64,000 bases of DNA from Thainema sp. (GTDB taxonomy: Bacteria; Cyanobacteriota; Cyanobacteriia; Phormidesmidales; Phormidesmidaceae): NCBI GenBank assembly GCA_052168235.1, contig JBQLZK010000024.1, positions 1 through 64,000 of the forward strand, in the 5' to 3' direction. The notes below the pieces were generated by a model. That model saw only the letters and a program-made list of their open reading frames with translations, ran no database searches and had not been told where the DNA came from. The position numbers were made by a program, and so were the translations under genes. Of this stretch, positions 42,693 to 50,959 are shown piece after piece; positions within the stretch are counted from its first letter, which is position 1, and each line of letters starts with the position of its first letter.

Positions 42693-43889
42693 TTAAGGAT
42701 GTTTGAGCAGTAGGTAATACATTTCGCCTTCGGCATTGAGCAAACCAGCCTGCTCGCCTGCTTCGGTGCCTGTGCCCATAAAGACATCGACTCGTCCTGC
42801 TCCCCGGATAGCGCTGCCTGTGTCTTGGTCGAGGACGTAGCGGCTGGTGGGGGAGGTTGTCCATGCTCCGGTGCTGTCTCGCATCGGTAGGGGAGCGTAG
42901 ATTAATGCGATCGCACCAGGCGGCATGATGGATTTATCGGTGGCAATCGAGCGCATAGGCGTCACGGGAACACCTAGACTGCCTGTAGCAGGCCGACCAT
43001 AGGTTTCTTCAAAGAAAATGAATCGCTGATTGCGCGGTAGGTACAGATCCAGTTCGTCAGGATTGGCCTTGAAGTAGTCCAGCAGCAGCGGCAGAGTAAG
43101 TTCTTCCAGGCTAAACTTGCCTGCGTCAACGAGCTGACGACCAATGCTGGTATAGGGATACTCCGTTCGTCCGGCGTAGCCTACGCTCATGGTGCTACCG
43201 TCCGTAAGCTGCAATCGAGCGGAGCCTTGCACCTGGACTAGAAAAGCTTCTAAGCGATCGCGCAGCCAAACCAGTTCATAGCCCCGCAGCGGCCCCTGAC
43301 TGCCCTGAAGCCCGTCGGCTCCTTCTAGTTCTAGACGAGTGGGATGAGGCAGCGGCCAGCGGCTTAAACTCGCCGGGGGCGAGTAAAGGGGATAGCGATA
43401 TTCTGCCGTTGGTGCGCGACTAGCCAAATAGGTCGGCTCAAAATAGCCCGTAAAGCTGACGCTGCCCTGTCCGTCATGTCCCACCGAGCGGTAAAAGGTA
43501 AACTCTCTTTGCACGGCTTGCTGAAATTCGCTGGCTGATTGGCTGGACAGCAAAAGCTGACGAAACCGCTGCAAACTGCGATAAACGCGATCGCGAGTTA
43601 CTCCCGCCACCGGATAGTTGCGATATGCTTCAACCGCCTCAGCAGATTGAAGGTAGCGCAAGCTGTTGTCAATCGAGGCCAACAGCGCAGCCCGATCGCC
43701 AGCTTGACTTCCCTCACCCCACAACCGCTCATCCAGCCCTAAATCCGGAAATGCTACAGCCGTCATGTCCGTGATGGACACTGGCTCTAGTGGCAGCCTA
43801 TCGGTGAGTGGAACCTGACCGGATGCTGGACTCAGCCAGAGGGCGAGCCCCAATCCGAGCAGGAATCCAATAATGTTGAAGCCTCGCAT
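42693..43889 (-). CDS. mltA: Lytic murein transglycosylase A
   Basis: TGYFEP, QVQGSA, SIATD and QDTGSAIRGAGRVDVFMG motifs. Confidence 0.92.
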   Translation of the reverse strand: MRGFNIIGFLLGLGLALWLSPASGQVPLTDRLPLEPVSITDMTAVAFPDLGLDERLWGEGSQAGDRAALLASIDNSLRYLQSAEAVEAYRNYPVAGVTRDRVYRSLQRFRQLLLSSQSASEFQQAVQREFTFYRSVGHDGQGSVSFTGYFEPTYLASRAPTAEYRYPLYSPPASLSRWPLPHPTRLELEGADGLQGSQGPLRGYELVWLRDRLEAFLVQVQGSARLQLTDGSTMSVGYAGRTEYPYTSIGRQLVDAGKFSLEELTLPLLLDYFKANPDELDLYLPRNQRFIFFEETYGRPATGSLGVPVTPMRSIATDKSIMPPGAIALIYAPLPMRDSTGAWTTSPTSRYVLDQDTGSAIRGAGRVDVFMGTGTEAGEQAGLLNAEGEMYYLLLKHP

Positions 43890-43927: not shown

Positions 43928-44179
43928 CTAGTATCGTTCGACGCTAGAACTGAAGATCGGTTCCACCCGAATCGCAATCACCTTAGAGGGACGAATCACC
44001 ATGTACTCGCCCTGAATGTTCTTGATCGGTACGCTGATAAAGTCATCGGACGTACTCTTGGGGACGAGTTCGCCGCTGTACCACTTTTGGAAATCCTGAA
44101 TAGTCGAAAACCGCACTTCTTCGCGATGTCCGCCGTCAATCAAAATATGAACCACAAATTCACTGGGTGTTCTGGGCAT
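43928..44179 (-). CDS. Small hypothetical protein (83 aa)
   Basis: Clean ATG ORF with an AAGGTAG RBS-like upstream sequence and globular composition. Confidence 0.7.
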   Translation of the reverse strand: MPRTPSEFVVHILIDGGHREEVRFSTIQDFQKWYSGELVPKSTSDDFISVPIKNIQGEYMVIRPSKVIAIRVEPIFSSSVERY

Positions 44180-44367: not shown

Positions 44368-45138
44368 CTAGCGTGCAAGGAGATTAAAGCGCTGTAGCCG
44401 CTCTTTCACTAAATCGGGTAAGCTCTTCCGCATTTCGGCAGCAGTTTGAAAAATCAGCCGATTTTGACCCGGTACGTCAAACGGGAACTGTCCGGCAAAA
44501 TCCGTCCGCTCCATTTGCGCCAGGATAATCTGCTCTGGTCGCTTACACTGCAACGCATAGCCAACTTCGACGCTGACCTGCGGACTGGGTAAAACCTGGG
44601 CCGGTGTGCCTGGAATCTGAGCGATTGGCGTGCCGTCCGCAATAAATAGCAAACTCTGGCGCAGCTTACGCATCAGCGTACTCTGGAGCCGAATCGGGCC
44701 TTCCGTCAGCCGATGGGATTCTTCTAGCGCTAGCGGTAGACGCAGTTTGGGATTCAGCTTTTCAATCACGGCTGTCAGTTCTTCCCGCAGAATTGAGCTG
44801 GACTCGCTATATTCCGTTTGGTAGCTCAGGAAAATCGTCGGCTCCAAATGCGTCATCACTTCGCGCTTGGTGAAATACAGCTCATGGCTGATCAGGTCGA
44901 TATTAGAAATCGCGTAGCCACCGCTGCCTTCAATGTAAAACTCCACCATCTCCCCAGCCAGATAGCGCTGAAACCAGTCCGACTGCTTGACATCTTCCGC
45001 GTCATCTAAAAAATCAGCCCGCAGGCCAGATTTCAGCAAACTGTTTTTACTCAAGCGCAAATCATGAGGCCGCTTTTCCAGTTCTTGAATCGGCTCATAT
45101 TCTCCGAGATACCAAGCTTTCAGCGCAATAATGGCCAT
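44368..45138 (-). CDS. Hypothetical protein with a C-terminal TIR/NDT-like domain
   Basis: IFLSYQ...LFIADGT...PSPQVSVEVGYA...FPFD motif series. Confidence 0.65.
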   Translation of the reverse strand: MAIIALKAWYLGEYEPIQELEKRPHDLRLSKNSLLKSGLRADFLDDAEDVKQSDWFQRYLAGEMVEFYIEGSGGYAISNIDLISHELYFTKREVMTHLEPTIFLSYQTEYSESSSILREELTAVIEKLNPKLRLPLALEESHRLTEGPIRLQSTLMRKLRQSLLFIADGTPIAQIPGTPAQVLPSPQVSVEVGYALQCKRPEQIILAQMERTDFAGQFPFDVPGQNRLIFQTAAEMRKSLPDLVKERLQRFNLLAR

Positions 45139-45403
45139 AATTTGCGTCTACCTGCCTTATGATTGCGATCGCAGTGGGCGATAAGTGGGCATAATTAACG
45201 CCATTTTAACCGCGCCGATTAGAAAAATGAGCAAGAATTGAATGAAGCGAAAACCTTCGTAATCCCGAAATGGAGCGTTTTGTACCCAATTGCTCCCATT
45301 TACCTGAAAATTTAGCAATTAGGCGATAAAAATCAGCCCTCCCGGCATGACAACTCAGAATAGAAAGTAATAGCGCAATAACTCGTCGCCTCGAAAATCA
45401 GCC

Positions 45404-45831
45404 ACTATAAAGCCGGACGACTCATCACACGCAACGTAGCGATGAATCGTCCGGCTTTATAGTTAACGAATAAGTTTGCGTATCAAAAAAGAACTAGGTG
45501 CTGTAGAGTTTGCTCCTTTTAATTAGATTAGGAAGTACCGAAGTTTTACCACCTAATTCGTTTATCCAAAGACGCAAGTTCCTTTTAAATCAACAACACC
45601 CAAACCGACTCAGGGAATTCTTCACTTTCTTCGATCATGAATAGAGTTATGACTGAATCGCAAATTATTTTACGTTAATTATCTCAGTCAAATTGCTCCC
45701 TTCTTTTCAATTTGAAGAAATATAAGCAACTTTGTTTGGGTGTTGTGGTTGACGAGACAGACTTAGATTAATCAGAGGTTCTCTCCTTTTTCCTTAACTA
45801 GCTGTATCTGTCAGGGAAGCATCTCTGCTTC
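45404..45831 (-). ncRNA. Candidate ~430-nt structured non-coding RNA
   Basis: TATAGT -10 box at 45844-45839; 5' hairpin with a GAGA loop; nested stems; cUUCGg loop; G-U pairs favouring the minus strand; 17-bp 3' stem; no long ORF. Confidence 0.55.
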
Positions 45832-46666
45832 AATTACAACTATAGCCCCTTGGCCTATCGAGATCGCGGTCGGTTTAACAAAGTTTACTTTTGCGATAGT
45901 TGCGATCGCACTTCGTTCTCTAAGCAGGGATCACTGAGTACAGAAGGGCTATAGCATCGCAACGCTATATCTAGAGTCAGATAATCCACGAGCAGCAACT
46001 GCACTTAATCTAGATCCCGCAAAATTGCTGATTTGGTTCGATACGGTCTGAGAAGAGGAATTTGAACACAGTCAATTTAACGAATAAAGCCAGTTTAGGA
46101 TCTTACCTAAACGCTCTGATTCCCATTCAATCAGTTCAAAATAATTGGTTGATGCAGCAGTTGGTGAAGCAATATTTTAAGCAGTAAATAATCCAGAGGG
46201 CATACGATTTTCAATGCTAAGTCAGTTTGTTTGCTGATTTTAGATATTCTTATATTCAGTGCTGATAATTATTGATCAAAACAAAATTAATTAAAAACGT
46301 GAGCCAGTTTGGATAATGACTTTCAGTAATTTCAACAGCAGTAGTTTAATAAAGCCAAAGTCAAAGTCAAGGTCAAAGCCAAAGCACTGGGCCTGATGCA
46401 TGATCTAGCCCTCTAAATCTAGTTCTCTAAAATTTGATTGCTCGGATATATTTCATTAAGAACCAGCTTCAGTAAAACGTGAACGGCGTAAACATAAAAC
46501 ACCTGCACAAGCATTTTTACCTAATCAAGATCGCCCGTAATGTCCTGCATTACATCAATTCGTAACTGAACTGCTTGCAACATCTCCAATTCCTGGTATC
46601 ACGGGAGATGATTATTAAAATTGTCAGTTGTAAGCGTAAGCACTGGGGCTGCGGGAGATTTGGGTT

Positions 46667-49600
46667 ATGGATGGCGATATTTCATATAGCTTGACCGCAA
46701 TTGTTGGCATTATCACCTTTATCATTGGGCTAATGGTGCAGCCATCCTCAAAGCAAAAGCTCAAGGAGATTGAGGGTACGACCGAACGGTTAGAGCAGGA
46801 AAAAGAGCAGCTTACCCATAATTTGCAACAGGCAACTGACACCGTGGCCCAGCTGCAGCGCCAGATCGAAAACGTGTCTCAAGAGCGCCAAACCCTACAA
46901 GAGGCGATGGACTTGACTCGCAATGTGGTGACCGCCTTAGAGCAACAAGTTAGCGAGGCCAACCAGGCCAAAGAGCAGCTTGAAGCCACTTTAGGTGAGC
47001 AAAACACAGACGCCGATACACTGCAAACCCGATTAAAGGATCTCACCGAGCAAAATGCACAGTTAGAAGAGCAGTTAAATGAAACACTGCGCGATCGCAA
47101 TTCTCTAGTTGAAACCCTACAGCAGCAGCTTGAGGATCTTAGTCAAGCGAATGAAGCACTCCAGCGTGAAGACGGACAAGATGCCGCAGCGAATGAAGCG
47201 CTACAGCAGGCCCTAGATGAGGCACAAGCAACCGCACAAGCATTGGAACAGCAGGTCAATAGCCTCACCCAGGAAAATGCCACCATGCAGGAAACCGTGA
47301 CGCTGGCTCAGCAAACGGTACAGGCACTAGAACAACAGATCAGTGAACTGTCCCAAGACAAGACGACGCTGGAAGAGGCAATGACGCTGGCCCAGCAAAC
47401 CGCGCAGTCGCTGCAAGAGCAGGTAGATGACTTGAGTCGTCACCGCAGCGCCCTAGAGAAGTTGTTGGAAGATGCCCAGAAGTCAGTTGAAGCTCTGCAC
47501 CAACGAGCAGAACGCTTAGAAGAGCAGAAGGCTGCACTGGAGCAGGAGTTTCGACAAGAGAATACGTCCTCCGAACAATTGCAGGCTGAAATTCAAGCAC
47601 TCACAGCCACCCAGATGCAGCTGACAGAAGAACTCGAAACGGCTCAGGCCCAAATTGCCGCACTTCAACCCCAGATGGCCGCACTGAATCAAGATAAGCG
47701 GACGCTGTCTGAGGCACTGCAGATTGCAGAAGCCAGTGTGAGATCGCTGGAGCAGCAGCAGCTTGAGTTGGAACAGGCCACTGCGGCTGAAACCACCTCC
47801 AGCCAGGAAATTCAGGCTCAAATCAATGGGCTGAACCAAGAGCGATCGCAACTGCTGGCGGATCTCAATACGGCGCAACAGACAATTCAATCGCTCCAGC
47901 CCCAAATTGAATCGCTGACCAGCGACCGACAAACATTGGAAGAAGCCCTAAATCTGGCCCAGCAAACCGTCACTGCTCTAGAACAGCAAATCACGGAGCT
48001 ATCATCCGCAGGGCAACGAGATGTAGATGAAGCGCTGGAGCAGGAGCGCCAGTCAGCAGCCGAGTTGCGGCAGCAAATTGCCGCTCTAGAGCAGCAGCGA
48101 CAGCAACTTGAAACCCAATTTCAGACGCAGCAAACCTCCGCTGCTGATCTGCGTAACCAGGTGCAAACGCTCAATCACGAAAAAGAGCGGCTGGCTGAAC
48201 AGCTCAGCGACAAGGAAAGCGCGATCGCAACTCTGCAAACCCAGTTGAAAACCGCTGAACAACAGCAAATTCGGCTAAAAGAACTTGAAACAGAGCTAGA
48301 ACAGGAGCGTACATCAGCGACGATCCTGCAAGAACAGATTGCGCAGCTCACTCAGGATAGTGATGATTTACTAGAAGAGCTAGAGGCTAAAGAAATTGCC
48401 ATTGCAGGACTACAGGCGCAACTGCGAGATGCATCGAGCCATGCCGATCGCCTGACCGAGCTTGAAGCCGAACTGGCCCAGGAGCGCACCGCAAAACAAA
48501 CGCTCCAGCAAGAATTCAATCAGATTCGAGATCGCAATGCCAGCCTGACCCGCGACCTAGAAGAACAGGAAGGTGCGATCGCAGTCTTACAAACCCAGCT
48601 TCAACAGGCAGAACAGCAGGAATCACGCCTATTAGAACTAGAGACCGAGCTAGACGCTGCCCAAGCCCAATCTACAGCGCTTCAGCAGCAAATTGACACC
48701 TTGACCCAGGAAAAAGACCAACTTGCGGCAGATCTTGACGAAAAAGAAGCTGCGATCGCAGTTCTGCAAACCCAGGTGGAATCACAATCTGCCGCCGCAG
48801 ATGCCCAGGCCAAACTCGAAGAACTCACCGCTCAACTGCACAGTGAGCAGGACACGGTACAAGACCTACGGCAGCAAATTCAGAATCTAGCTGCCGAAAA
48901 AGATGAGTTAGCCGCTCAACTGGCTGAGCGAGAAACGATTATCACCGAACTGGAACAAGCCTCAATGCCCAGTACGGATGGTGCCGACTGGCAAACTCAA
49001 ATCGACGAGCTAGAAATTGCACTGCAGCAGGAACAAGATGCGGCCAGTACTCTAAGACAGCAGCTGACGGAGCTGACGCAGATCAATGAGCAACTTCAGG
49101 CAGACTTAGCAACCGTTGAAACGCAATCCAGCCGTACCACCGAGGATCTACAGACCCAAGTCGATGAGCTGACCCAGCAAAAGCAGCAGTTGGAAAAGGC
49201 GCTGCAAGAATCGCAATCAACTGTTGATTCACTCGACGCTCTTGTCCGCGACCTCAGTCAGGATCGCGAACATCTCGAACAGGAAACCGAAAATGCTCAA
49301 ACTGCGATCGCGCCGCTGCAAGCTGAAATTGAACGACTTGAACAGCAGCTTGCTCTGGTCACCTCGACAGAATCTGAGGTAGATACGGCTGAACTGGAAG
49401 ACCAAATTGCTGCTCTCCAGCAGGAACGGGATGAACTTCAGACGAATCTGCGATCGCTGCAAGATAATTTGGCAGCGGTGCAAAGCCGACTGAGTGAACT
49501 CCAGCAGGAGAACTCGCAGCTTAACTCGCAACTGGCAGAGGCACTGAATACCGCAATCGATACCACTGATTTAGAACGTGAACTCCAACAGCTACAGCAG

Positions 49601-50959
49601 GAACGGGAGCGACTCACCCAGGAACTTCAAGACGCCCAAACCACTGCGCAAACGTCACTCGACGAGCTACAAGCCCAGCTACAAACTCTAAAGCAGCAAA
49701 ATGCCGAACTAACCACCGCATTGGAGCAAGCGGCTGACACGGACGAACTAGAAATTCAACTCATATCCCTGACGCAAGAACGCGATCAGCTCGAGCAAGA
49801 ACTCCAGACCAGTCAGGACACCCTCAAGGATTTGCAAAGCCAGATTAGCGATCTGGAGCATCAAAATGAAAACTTATCCCTATCGCTGGAACAAGCCGCT
49901 GATACAAGTGAATTTGAGTCCCAAATCGAAGCACTGCATGAAGAACGGCAGCAGCTTACCCAAGATTTACAAGCTGCTCAGGATACTTCGGCAACATTAG
50001 AACAGCAGATTCAGGCTTTGCAGCAACAACTCCAAACCTTGCAGCAGCAAAACGCTGAACTCGACGATATGCTGCAAGCGATGGAAGATCCAACCGAGCT
50101 GGAAGCGCAAATCGAACAATTGACCCAGGAACGCGATCGCACTCGTCAGGATCTCAACACCCTGCAGGAAACCGTCATTAGCCTACAGACGCAAATCGAC
50201 CAGCTTACCCAAGAGCGACAGCAGTTTAGCCAGCAAGTTCAGACGGCTGAACAGACAATTAGTGAGTTGCGATCGCAAATTGCATCCCTAGAACAGTCCG
50301 CTCAAGCTGTGTCTGGCACTGATGCCGATTTAAAAGAAACTTTAGAGGCACTAACCGCTGAACGGCAGCAGCTTGAACAAGCATTAGAACAAACCCAGAC
50401 AACGGTTCAGTCTCTCGAAACTCAGGTGCAAAAACTCACAGGCGAAAAACGCACCCTGGAAGAAGCAATGAAAATGGCCCAGGAAGTTGTTGGCAGCTTG
50501 CAGCAGCAAATCGCCGCATTAGCTCAAGAAAATGAGCAATTAAGCGCTCAGTCATCGACTGTCCAAAATCAACCTCAATACCAACCATCTCCACCATCAG
50601 CTAGTCCTGCTTCCCCACCAGCAGAGGAAAAATCGGCTACGCCAGAAATCCCTGCGGCACCATCGGCTGAATCACCTGAGCCAGGAGAATTACTCTCTGA
50701 AGATGCCGCTGCAAATTCATCCCTAGAAGACAAAACTATCGTGATTACAGGTACATTCAAAGGAATTGACGTCAACAAATTACGCGACATGGTGCAAGCC
50801 GCAGGTGCCCGCATCACCAGTATGCCCAGTGCTCAAACAGACTACATTGTGGTTGGCGACAACCCCAGCGGTAACAAGCTCGCCAAAGCCGAAAAGGTAG
50901 GAGTGCCGCAAATATCTGAGGATCAGTTATTTGCGATGCTCGGCATCTCAGAACTGTAG
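46667..50959 (+). CDS. Membrane-anchored giant coiled-coil protein with a C-terminal BRCT domain
   Basis: N-terminal TM, ~1270 aa of Q/E/L heptads, Pro-rich linker, BRCT motifs KTIVITG...GA...TDYIVVG...KLAKA..GV..ISE. Confidence 0.85.
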   Translation: MDGDISYSLTAIVGIITFIIGLMVQPSSKQKLKEIEGTTERLEQEKEQLTHNLQQATDTVAQLQRQIENVSQERQTLQEAMDLTRNVVTALEQQVSEANQAKEQLEATLGEQNTDADTLQTRLKDLTEQNAQLEEQLNETLRDRNSLVETLQQQLEDLSQANEALQREDGQDAAANEALQQALDEAQATAQALEQQVNSLTQENATMQETVTLAQQTVQALEQQISELSQDKTTLEEAMTLAQQTAQSLQEQVDDLSRHRSALEKLLEDAQKSVEALHQRAERLEEQKAALEQEFRQENTSSEQLQAEIQALTATQMQLTEELETAQAQIAALQPQMAALNQDKRTLSEALQIAEASVRSLEQQQLELEQATAAETTSSQEIQAQINGLNQERSQLLADLNTAQQTIQSLQPQIESLTSDRQTLEEALNLAQQTVTALEQQITELSSAGQRDVDEALEQERQSAAELRQQIAALEQQRQQLETQFQTQQTSAADLRNQVQTLNHEKERLAEQLSDKESAIATLQTQLKTAEQQQIRLKELETELEQERTSATILQEQIAQLTQDSDDLLEELEAKEIAIAGLQAQLRDASSHADRLTELEAELAQERTAKQTLQQEFNQIRDRNASLTRDLEEQEGAIAVLQTQLQQAEQQESRLLELETELDAAQAQSTALQQQIDTLTQEKDQLAADLDEKEAAIAVLQTQVESQSAAADAQAKLEELTAQLHSEQDTVQDLRQQIQNLAAEKDELAAQLAERETIITELEQASMPSTDGADWQTQIDELEIALQQEQDAASTLRQQLTELTQINEQLQADLATVETQSSRTTEDLQTQVDELTQQKQQLEKALQESQSTVDSLDALVRDLSQDREHLEQETENAQTAIAPLQAEIERLEQQLALVTSTESEVDTAELEDQIAALQQERDELQTNLRSLQDNLAAVQSRLSELQQENSQLNSQLAEALNTAIDTTDLERELQQLQQERERLTQELQDAQTTAQTSLDELQAQLQTLKQQNAELTTALEQAADTDELEIQLISLTQERDQLEQELQTSQDTLKDLQSQISDLEHQNENLSLSLEQAADTSEFESQIEALHEERQQLTQDLQAAQDTSATLEQQIQALQQQLQTLQQQNAELDDMLQAMEDPTELEAQIEQLTQERDRTRQDLNTLQETVISLQTQIDQLTQERQQFSQQVQTAEQTISELRSQIASLEQSAQAVSGTDADLKETLEALTAERQQLEQALEQTQTTVQSLETQVQKLTGEKRTLEEAMKMAQEVVGSLQQQIAALAQENEQLSAQSSTVQNQPQYQPSPPSASPASPPAEEKSATPEIPAAPSAESPEPGELLSEDAAANSSLEDKTIVITGTFKGIDVNKLRDMVQAAGARITSMPSAQTDYIVVGDNPSGNKLAKAEKVGVPQISEDQLFAMLGISEL

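Follow-up and report, generated by a model that had tools for sequence, protein, structure and literature searches.

A divergent member of an uncatalogued structured RNA family upstream of a conserved hypothetical gene in the cyanobacterium Thainema sp.

The window analysed here is a stretch of 64,000 nucleotides (nt) from Thainema sp. (contig JBQLZK010000024.1, positions 1 to 64,000). It contains a 1.5 kb gap free of open reading frames (ORFs) at 45139-46666, bounded on one side by a minus-strand ORF of 256 amino acids (aa) and on the other by a plus-strand ORF of 1430 aa (46667-50959). Within this gap lies the stretch 45404-45844, for which an initial annotation, made from the sequence alone, had proposed a structured non-coding RNA of about 430 nt, read from the minus strand and independently promoted. 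We find that the region encodes a divergent member of an uncatalogued family of structured RNAs found across cyanobacteria; to judge from its conservation, the RNA is the minus strand from 45838 to about 45586, or roughly 250 nt. As the annotation had said, the flagged span has no long ORF (none of at least 60 aa, the longest being one of 44 aa on the plus strand, 45510-45644), and the stems, -10 box and purine motifs that it named all lie where it placed them, including TATAGT, the hairpin GAAGCA-GAGA-TGCTTC, the pairing GACAGA/TCTGTC (45812-45807 with 45761-45756), a perfect stem of 13 base pairs (bp), and TTCTTCA/TGAAGAA and TGACTGA/TCAGTCA. The coordinates of the features are collected in Table 1.

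The limits of the RNA follow from comparison with relatives. The sister genome (G001) keeps 45471-45909 at 84% identity, with the part from about 45850 to 45690 almost unchanged, and shows no conservation upstream of 45909. Distant genomes of the taxonomic family (G012, G011, G025, G195 and G196) keep only a unit of about 300 nt that starts with the box GTAAACTTT, includes the -10 box and the 5' hairpin, and extends as far as the 3' arm of what the annotation called "domain 2". Its "domain 3" is found at 76% identity in the sister genome only, that is, in one of 60 other genomes sampled in the family, and even there the cUUCGg loop is lost; the rest of the spacer down to the ATG is likewise present only in that genome among the 60. 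The 17-bp stem that had been thought to close the 3' end is present, and is in fact part of a palindrome with arms of 23 nt at 96% complementarity (45404-45426 with 45441-45463, perfect over 17 bp), but it is absent from the sister genome and is a strain-specific element, not the 3' end of the RNA. Because "domain 3" is confined to this genus and the palindrome to this strain, the conserved RNA measures about 250 nt and not 430; of the three stem domains proposed, the first two are conserved in the family and the third is genus-specific. This genome has one copy each of the RNA, the spacer and the palindrome, the last of which matches nothing there but itself.

Two further observations concern the spacer. 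The palindrome (45404-45463) looks like a recent insertion or hairpin, and contigs from RNA sequencing runs end inside it (45452), which may be a mere assembly break. The 160 nt directly upstream of the ATG of the 256-aa gene (45139-45301) are 93% identical to the sister genome, above the surrounding spacer; they overlap a minus-strand ORF of 53 aa without a family (45157-45318) and could be a genus-specific leader element.

Table 1. Positions of the RNA, its parts and the associated features in the window
Feature	Position	Strand	Remarks
Promoter box GTAAACTTTGTTAAAC	45873..45888	minus	Equivalent in Nostocales is AAAGTAAAGTTTAGTTGCA; starts 55-57 nt before P1
-10 box TATAGT	45839..45844	minus	Read from sequence
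P1, 5'-terminal hairpin GAAGC/GCUUC	45816..45831	minus	GAGA loop specific to this genome
P2 domain	45756..45812	minus	Outer helix GACAGAU (45812-45806) with GUCUGUC (45762-45756)
Purine motif AAAAAGGAGAGAACC	45791-45777	minus	P2 interior
Linker UCGUCAA, single-stranded	45749..45755	minus	Between 5' domain and P3
3' domain closed by long-range P3	45591..45748	minus	Encloses P4 and P5
P3	45748-45737 with 45602-45591	minus	13 contiguous bp at 45746-45734 with 45605-45593
P4	45726-45714 with 45623-45609	minus	
P5	45702-45685 with 45654-45642	minus	
U/A-rich tail after P3 (AUUUAAAAGGAA)	45579..45590	minus	Likely 3' end of a short RNA form
"Domain 3", genus-specific structured spacer	45470..45585	minus	Outside the RNA family
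Palindrome	45404..45463	not assigned	Strain-specific insertion
256-aa conserved hypothetical gene linked to the RNA	44368..45138	minus	N-terminal beta-rich and C-terminal TIR/deoxyribosyltransferase-like domain

A two-part pattern consisting of the two strands of helix P2 matches at least 115 loci in named cyanobacterial genomes, and 80 of these were fetched; among the matches listed are loci in Nostoc, Fischerella, Calothrix, Tolypothrix, Raphidiopsis, Xenococcus, Acaryochloris, Gloeocapsopsis and Leptolyngbya-like strains. The same pattern occurs in 43 of 401 genomes of an even class sample (33 of 167 genera), and a reversed control pattern gave no match in these 401. The alignment comprises the window copy, 76 fetched loci and three family loci; two exact duplicates were left out, as were five copies truncated at the end of a contig. 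Across all 80 sequences the length is 246-313 nt and the order of the elements is identical. A covariance model of the 5' half only, built from 59 of the 80 sequences after removal by hand of 21 close duplicates, finds one copy in this genome (72.8 bits) and matches 53 of 151 sampled cyanobacterial genomes (39 of 84 genera), with no match in six families of which 12, 11, 12, 11, 8 and 5 genomes were searched, some of them small. Within the family the window copy is a trimmed and divergent member: its P2b is degenerate, and it lacks about 7 nt of the junction before P3, which reads AGUAG in most members. The annotation had recognised no known family, and a check against Rfam 15 agrees: the whole window has no match at gathering score, the region 45100-46700 has two chance matches at E up to 10, neither of them on the RNA, and 12 loci with canonical members have nothing on the RNA at E up to 1.

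RNAalifold recovers helices P1, P2, P3 and P4 from the alignment of 80 sequences; P2b and P5 were added to this structure by eye before all pairs were counted, giving 54 pairs in eight helices. The cells of the alignment are paired in 90.6% of cases, compared with 38.8-45.6% when the partners are slid and 85.7% in shuffles. Double changes are seen in 35 of the 54 pairs against 21-26 with partners slid and 23.1 +/- 2.1 in shuffled alignments, of which none in 500 reaches 35, and in 230 cells against 63-111 and 74.6, respectively. Relatives of the RNA thus exist and their stems covary. Most of the covariation lies in P3 (double changes in 11 of 12 pairs, 96.6% of cells paired), P4 (11 of 11 pairs) and P5 (10 of 13 pairs), all of which are outside the fetch pattern; the 5' hairpin P1 is paired in 99.5% of cells and has double changes in two of its five pairs. 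That P2 and UCUCGUC do not vary in this alignment is a circular result, since those bases formed the pattern, and part of the linker also falls within it. Copies found with the covariance model include a P2 variant, CAGAC/GUCUG, that is a compensatory change, and in them the linker varies too.

The minus strand of the flagged stretch folds to -141.3 kcal/mol, compared with -103.2 +/- 5.4 for 100 shuffles (z -7.0, none as good), and the plus strand gives a nearly equal z of -6.9, so that folding energy alone cannot pick the strand. In the alignment, G-U and U-G cells (352) outnumber A-C and C-A cells (84), which identifies the minus strand as the RNA strand; the argument from G-U against C-A that the annotation had made for this copy thus holds family-wide. 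These structural features leave us in little doubt that the minus strand here carries a genuine, conserved gene for a structured RNA.

The promoter is as regular as the fold. In all 76 loci a TAnnnT hexamer ends 6-8 nt before P1, the distance being exactly 7 nt in 62; a control window has one in five of 76. An upstream box of the type GTAAA(C/G)TTT is present in 63 of the 76 and begins 55-57 nt before P1 in 62 of those 63 (control window, three of 76). Both elements lie wholly outside the fetch pattern. With this fixed geometry the RNA very probably starts at the foot of P1, at about 45838-45831, as the annotation had predicted from the -10 box and the 5' hairpin, and together with the covariation the geometry supports its view of an independently promoted non-coding RNA. 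The upstream box appears to be a poor fit to the NtcA and RpaB consensus sequences.

A linkage that the annotation had missed connects the RNA to the 256-aa gene. Of the 80 fetched loci, 33 have a homologue of that gene whose start lies 42-417 nt beyond P3. The gene is present in 103 of the 151 class-sample genomes and in 48 of the 53 that are positive for the RNA, and in 37 of the 48 genomes with both, RNA and gene share strand and contig with the RNA upstream, the distance being about 600 nt at most in 35 and about 1.5 kb in two; this split was obtained by comparing RNA and gene coordinates by hand. In three genomes (G012, G011 and G025) the ATG comes about 40 nt after P3 and there is no room for a further promoter. 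The RNA thus has two of the properties of a cis-acting leader or riboswitch, a conserved structure with compensatory changes and a consistent same-strand position upstream of one gene family, even if in 11 of the 48 genomes it is not adjacent.

Other copies stand alone or in tandem. A textbook terminator comes after the RNA in G195 and G196, and in G195 a convergent gene comes next. Tandem arrays occur in G259 (four copies), in G300 (two copies, then the gene), in G239/G313 and in G045/G206, and G198 has four copies, none of which is beside the gene. Each tandem copy has its own box and -10 hexamer, and the promoter of the next copy begins 50-70 nt after the preceding P3 tail. Some neighbours of these copies may be recorded here. 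A glutamine riboswitch aptamer (RF01739, 55.3 bits, above the gathering score) is found at 2843-2923 on the minus strand of locus L133 (G259:C114), about 590 nt upstream of the four-copy array and on the same strand. Two stand-alone copies (L053 and L076) are followed by genes that by eye belong to mobile elements, one encoding an IS607-type serine recombinase-like protein with a MerR-type N-terminus and the other a TnpB/OrfB-like protein.

As a possible contact between RNA and gene, we considered pairing of AUCUGUCUCGUC with the ribosome-binding region in the 40 nt before the ATG, and set it aside: the pairing is strong in only nine of the 33 linked loci (mean z -0.9), and in many of the others it is absent or worse than in shuffles. 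In the nine (L089, L020, L095, L048, L090, L047, L074, L017 and L033; duplex at or below -12 kcal/mol, z at or below -2.2), ACGAGACAG or GAGGCAG near the ribosome-binding site is complementary to AUCUGUCUCGUC, which comprises the P2 3' strand and the linker; this may be a lineage-specific long-range contact or chance.

The gene is 255 aa long across genomes and 256 aa here. It has 1818 homologues at 70-80% identity in several cyanobacterial families, those with names being called hypothetical, and no Pfam or NCBIfam family is found among them. Searches of the 256-aa protein with PADLOC and NCBIfam gave nothing, and a sequence search of the PDB gave nothing meaningful. An AlphaFold model from a shallow alignment was unusable, with a predicted local distance difference test (pLDDT) score of 53, and a deeper alignment raised this to 91.1. 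In the resulting model residues 97-254 adopt a flavodoxin-like fold whose closest matches are the TIR domain of SfSTING (Z 12.0), TIRAP (Z 11.5) and MilB (Z 11.5); MilB and DNPH1, matched by Foldseek at E of about 1e-4, are nucleotide N-glycosidases/deoxyribosyltransferases, and distant relatives of the protein have weak PF10137/PF05014 matches, one of them above the cut-off. The C-terminal domain is thus predicted to be TIR/nucleoside 2-deoxyribosyltransferase-like by fold, and a shared fold does not show function. No RNA-binding fold is recognised in the protein, whose N-terminal domain is barely covered by the fold searches.

Downstream of the 256-aa gene on the same strand are an 83-aa ORF without a family (43928-44179, minus strand) and a gene for an MltA-type lytic transglycosylase (42693-43889, minus strand; PF03562 and PF06725). 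The 1430-aa ORF on the other side of the gap (plus strand) diverges from the promoter of the RNA and encodes a protein that is nearly all coiled coil, with a C-terminal BRCT domain (PF00533, E 3e-9).

Turning to the 3' end, a conserved (U)nUUUAAA follows P3 across the family, some copies having U6 directly after P3. Another terminator-like hairpin within 130 nt after P3 is found in none of 33 gene-linked and in two of 43 stand-alone copies. Given this conserved tail and the near absence of other terminators, P3 and its tail are taken as the putative 3' end of the RNA. Parts of the stretch occur in 19 public sequencing runs, seven of which are on record as RNA, and contigs from four of the 19 were compared. 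Contigs from the DNA run cover 45250-45958, and those from RNA libraries fall only within 45452-45823, leaving 45250-45438 and 45844-46050 uncovered, a lack of cover that is not proof of silence. Two metatranscriptome runs of one study give contigs at 45452-45668 and 45702-45763, or at 45567-45713, and from a run of another study (X3, RNA by guess) comes a contig of 254 nt that spans 45823-45579 and so coincides almost exactly with the conserved unit. The contig at 45452-45668 bridges the P3 tail, as read-through would. Taken together these contigs hint weakly at a short form and a read-through form that crosses "domain 3", which is then probably transcribed by read-through.

From these arrangements we infer the ends of the RNA, termination at P3 and a regulatory logic of the following kind. 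The RNA would be a leader or attenuator, that is, a promoter-proximal RNA with its own closing helix and tail, read-through of which expresses the gene; we put this forward tentatively, as quite possible without calling it probable. Transcription of the minus strand from the fixed-geometry promoter would produce an RNA that begins with P1, continues with the P2 domain and ends with the 3' domain, in which long-range P3 encloses P4 and P5. P3 and the U/A-rich tail near 45590-45579 would end most transcripts, giving a discrete, stable RNA of about 250 nt, and the transcripts that read through would form the 5' leader of the 256-aa gene, here across a lineage-specific spacer of about 450 nt. The RNA would in this way set the amount of the gene product. 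The balance would probably be set by a putative bound factor, either a small nucleotide-like molecule or a protein, whose binding stabilises the 3' domain or opens it. Copies that stand alone or in tandem elsewhere would supply the same RNA free of the gene.

Several observations weigh against such a leader. The tail in this genome is weak (AUUUAAAA), a terminator scan of the minus strand from 45100 to 46000 found no terminator-like site, and P3 encloses about 130 nt, unlike a standard terminator hairpin. The 8 nt after P3 contain on average 4.67 T in gene-linked and 4.14 in stand-alone copies; tuned read-through would predict a difference in U content between the two kinds and none is seen. 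The RNA is away from the gene in the 11 of 48 genomes mentioned above, and 55 of the 103 genomes with the gene have no match to the 5'-half model, so that the gene does not need the RNA. The 47 fetched loci without the gene mostly have no downstream ORF, and the rest have unrelated genes; these ORF-less copies and the non-adjacent ones are not explained by a purely cis-acting element. A second promoter might lie in the conserved 160 nt before the ATG, and neither a ligand nor a binding protein of the RNA is known. The contigs, finally, reveal neither the strand nor the start, end or level of a transcript, and DNA can be present in RNA libraries.

Some of the same observations would be accounted for if the RNA acted in trans as a stand-alone molecule and its position before the gene reflected co-expression or partnership with no cis control. 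It could then be a ribonucleoprotein scaffold or partner, perhaps of the 256-aa protein itself, or a decoy for an RNA-binding protein, and the annotation's proposal of a decoy or scaffold would, for a protein other than CsrA, fall here. The stand-alone copies with a canonical terminator (G195/G196), the arrays of up to four copies with a promoter each (G259), the four copies of G198 of which none adjoins the gene and the absence of a downstream ORF at most of the 47 gene-less loci all fit this idea, as does the 254-nt contig, RNA by guess, that nearly equals the conserved unit; the RNA also starts with a conserved hairpin and ends with a closing helix, and a 5'-terminal hairpin and a closing end helix are typical of stable RNAs. 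Against it stands the arrangement in 37 of 48 genomes, where the RNA immediately precedes the gene in the same orientation, often with a spacer of only 40-100 nt and with no sign of a separate promoter; there the gene must be transcribed through the RNA. No binding protein has been identified, nor an RNA-binding fold in the 256-aa protein, whose N-terminal domain those searches barely reach. A role in trans to the exclusion of cis control thus seems to us rather unlikely, though well worth keeping in view, and cis and trans roles may both be true. More speculatively, and with distinct doubt, the RNA and the TIR/deoxyribosyltransferase-like protein might form one conserved nucleotide sensing or signalling module. 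In one version of it the RNA might be an unusually large riboswitch whose closing helix is the terminator and whose ligand is a nucleotide derivative produced or broken down by the enzyme; the other version would make the RNA a partner or substrate of the enzyme, and in both versions free and tandem copies would buffer in trans.

The remaining explanations are much less likely. The annotation had likened the RNA to the CsrB/RsmZ-type sponges, which titrate a CsrA-like protein through repeated exposed GGA motifs, and like them it is non-coding, has its own promoter and carries several purine-rich GGA-like motifs. All four motifs (GGA or GAGG on the minus strand at about 45783, 45693, 45578 and 45511) are present, and the P2-interior one, AAGAGGUAAAA in most members, is nearly invariant and unpaired. 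Conservation in the family holds for the two near 45783 and 45693; those near 45578 and 45511 fail to be conserved even between this genome and its sister. The GGGAG near 45698 is the 5' strand of P5 and pairs with CUCU, and the purine run of the P4 3' strand (GAAGAA here) pairs with a CU-rich 5' strand, with double changes in eight of eight pairs, so that a single conserved exposed site (GAGG) is left, whereas CsrB/RsmZ-type RNAs carry from several to about twenty. In addition, CsrA (PF02599) has no match in this genome, which is 99.99% complete, the controls from E. coli, B. subtilis and T. maritima being positive, and the Csr/Rsm models of Rfam give no match even at E up to 10. Because there is no CsrA, two motifs are unconserved, one motif and a further purine run are paired and one exposed GAGG remains, we reject a CsrB-like sponge as hardly credible. 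The same GAGG, nearly invariant and flanked by A-rich unpaired sequence, might instead serve as a ribosome decoy, with the exposed P2-interior GAGGU pairing with the anti-Shine-Dalgarno end of 16S rRNA and holding the 30S subunit. No conserved start codon or frame follows it, since the spacing from it to the next conserved block differs among members by 1, 3 and 4 nt, which would suit a decoy; but there is one site per RNA, the motif differs in this genome (AAAAAGGAGAG) and may pair with the following CCUCU, and the elaborate 3' domain and the gene linkage are left unexplained, which makes this very improbable. Hardly better are the prospects of an mRNA that encodes a small peptide, or of a relic of a repeat or mobile element. 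Some members do have a Shine-Dalgarno-like motif followed by an ATG (for example GGGAGCAATG in G012), but the short ORFs vary between members in length, frame, sequence and start codon, and conservation tracks helices and not codons. A transposase-like ORF follows the stand-alone copy in two fetched loci (L053 and L076), but this genome has a single copy and no terminal repeats are found.

The leader or attenuator that we favour resembles known riboswitches and attenuating leaders, among whose transcription-attenuating classes are the cobalamin and lysine riboswitches, in being a covarying multi-helix RNA that, in most genomes with both RNA and gene, is placed after a promoter and ahead of a gene of one family, all in the same orientation, and in having a U-rich tract after a helix at the 3' end. 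It differs from them in having no match to an Rfam riboswitch or leader and no known ligand, in that its putative terminator is the long-range closing helix and not a separate hairpin, in that many copies stand alone or in tandem with their own promoter and no gene behind, and in that the promoter itself is conserved across the phylum. The tandem arrays with a promoter for each copy (four in G259, two in G300) and the wide cyanobacterial spread recall NsiR1 and Yfr2, cyanobacterial families with tandem, individually promoted copies of about 60-100 nt; the present RNA is 250-310 nt long with eight helices, has no Rfam match and is usually fused 5' of a protein gene. OLE RNA is with oapA a similar case of a sizeable, highly structured, phylum-wide RNA beside one uncharacterised conserved protein gene, but ours is much smaller and unrelated in sequence, and its partnership with the neighbouring protein is putative. 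It is unlike 6S RNA in that it has no RF00013 match and that its 5' third (P1 and P2) lies outside the closing helix, where 6S RNA has a closing stem with a central bubble that extends over the entire molecule.

Four signature strings and four strings from the promoter box, searched for in full-text literature, brought up nothing but unrelated primers. The RNA is not described in the available part of a 2016 survey of small RNAs in heterocystous strains (Brenes-Alvarez, PMC4734099), nor in that of a 2026 screen of 202 genomes (Geissler, PMC12873609), the supplement of which may hold an overlapping prediction. That screen was anchored on KEGG-annotated genes (PMC12873609); the 256-aa gene is probably not KEGG-annotated. 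With no earlier description found, we regard the RNA as a new family of a known kind, a structured leader or a small RNA.

The RNA is of real interest for its size, spread, conserved promoter and fixed partner gene. To our knowledge, structured RNAs of 250-300 nt that are conserved across a phylum are rare, and most of those known turned out to be ribozymes, riboswitches or ribonucleoprotein cores. The present RNA is widespread among cyanobacteria with large genomes, filamentous ones included; that it stayed unnoticed would be explained if the usual unicellular model strains belong to the families without a match to the covariance model. It offers three experimental handles, namely the conserved promoter box, the fixed partner gene with its nucleotide-hydrolase/TIR-like fold, and the natural stand-alone and tandem variants, and solving it could reveal both a new cyanobacterial regulatory signal and a function for a conserved "hypothetical" protein.

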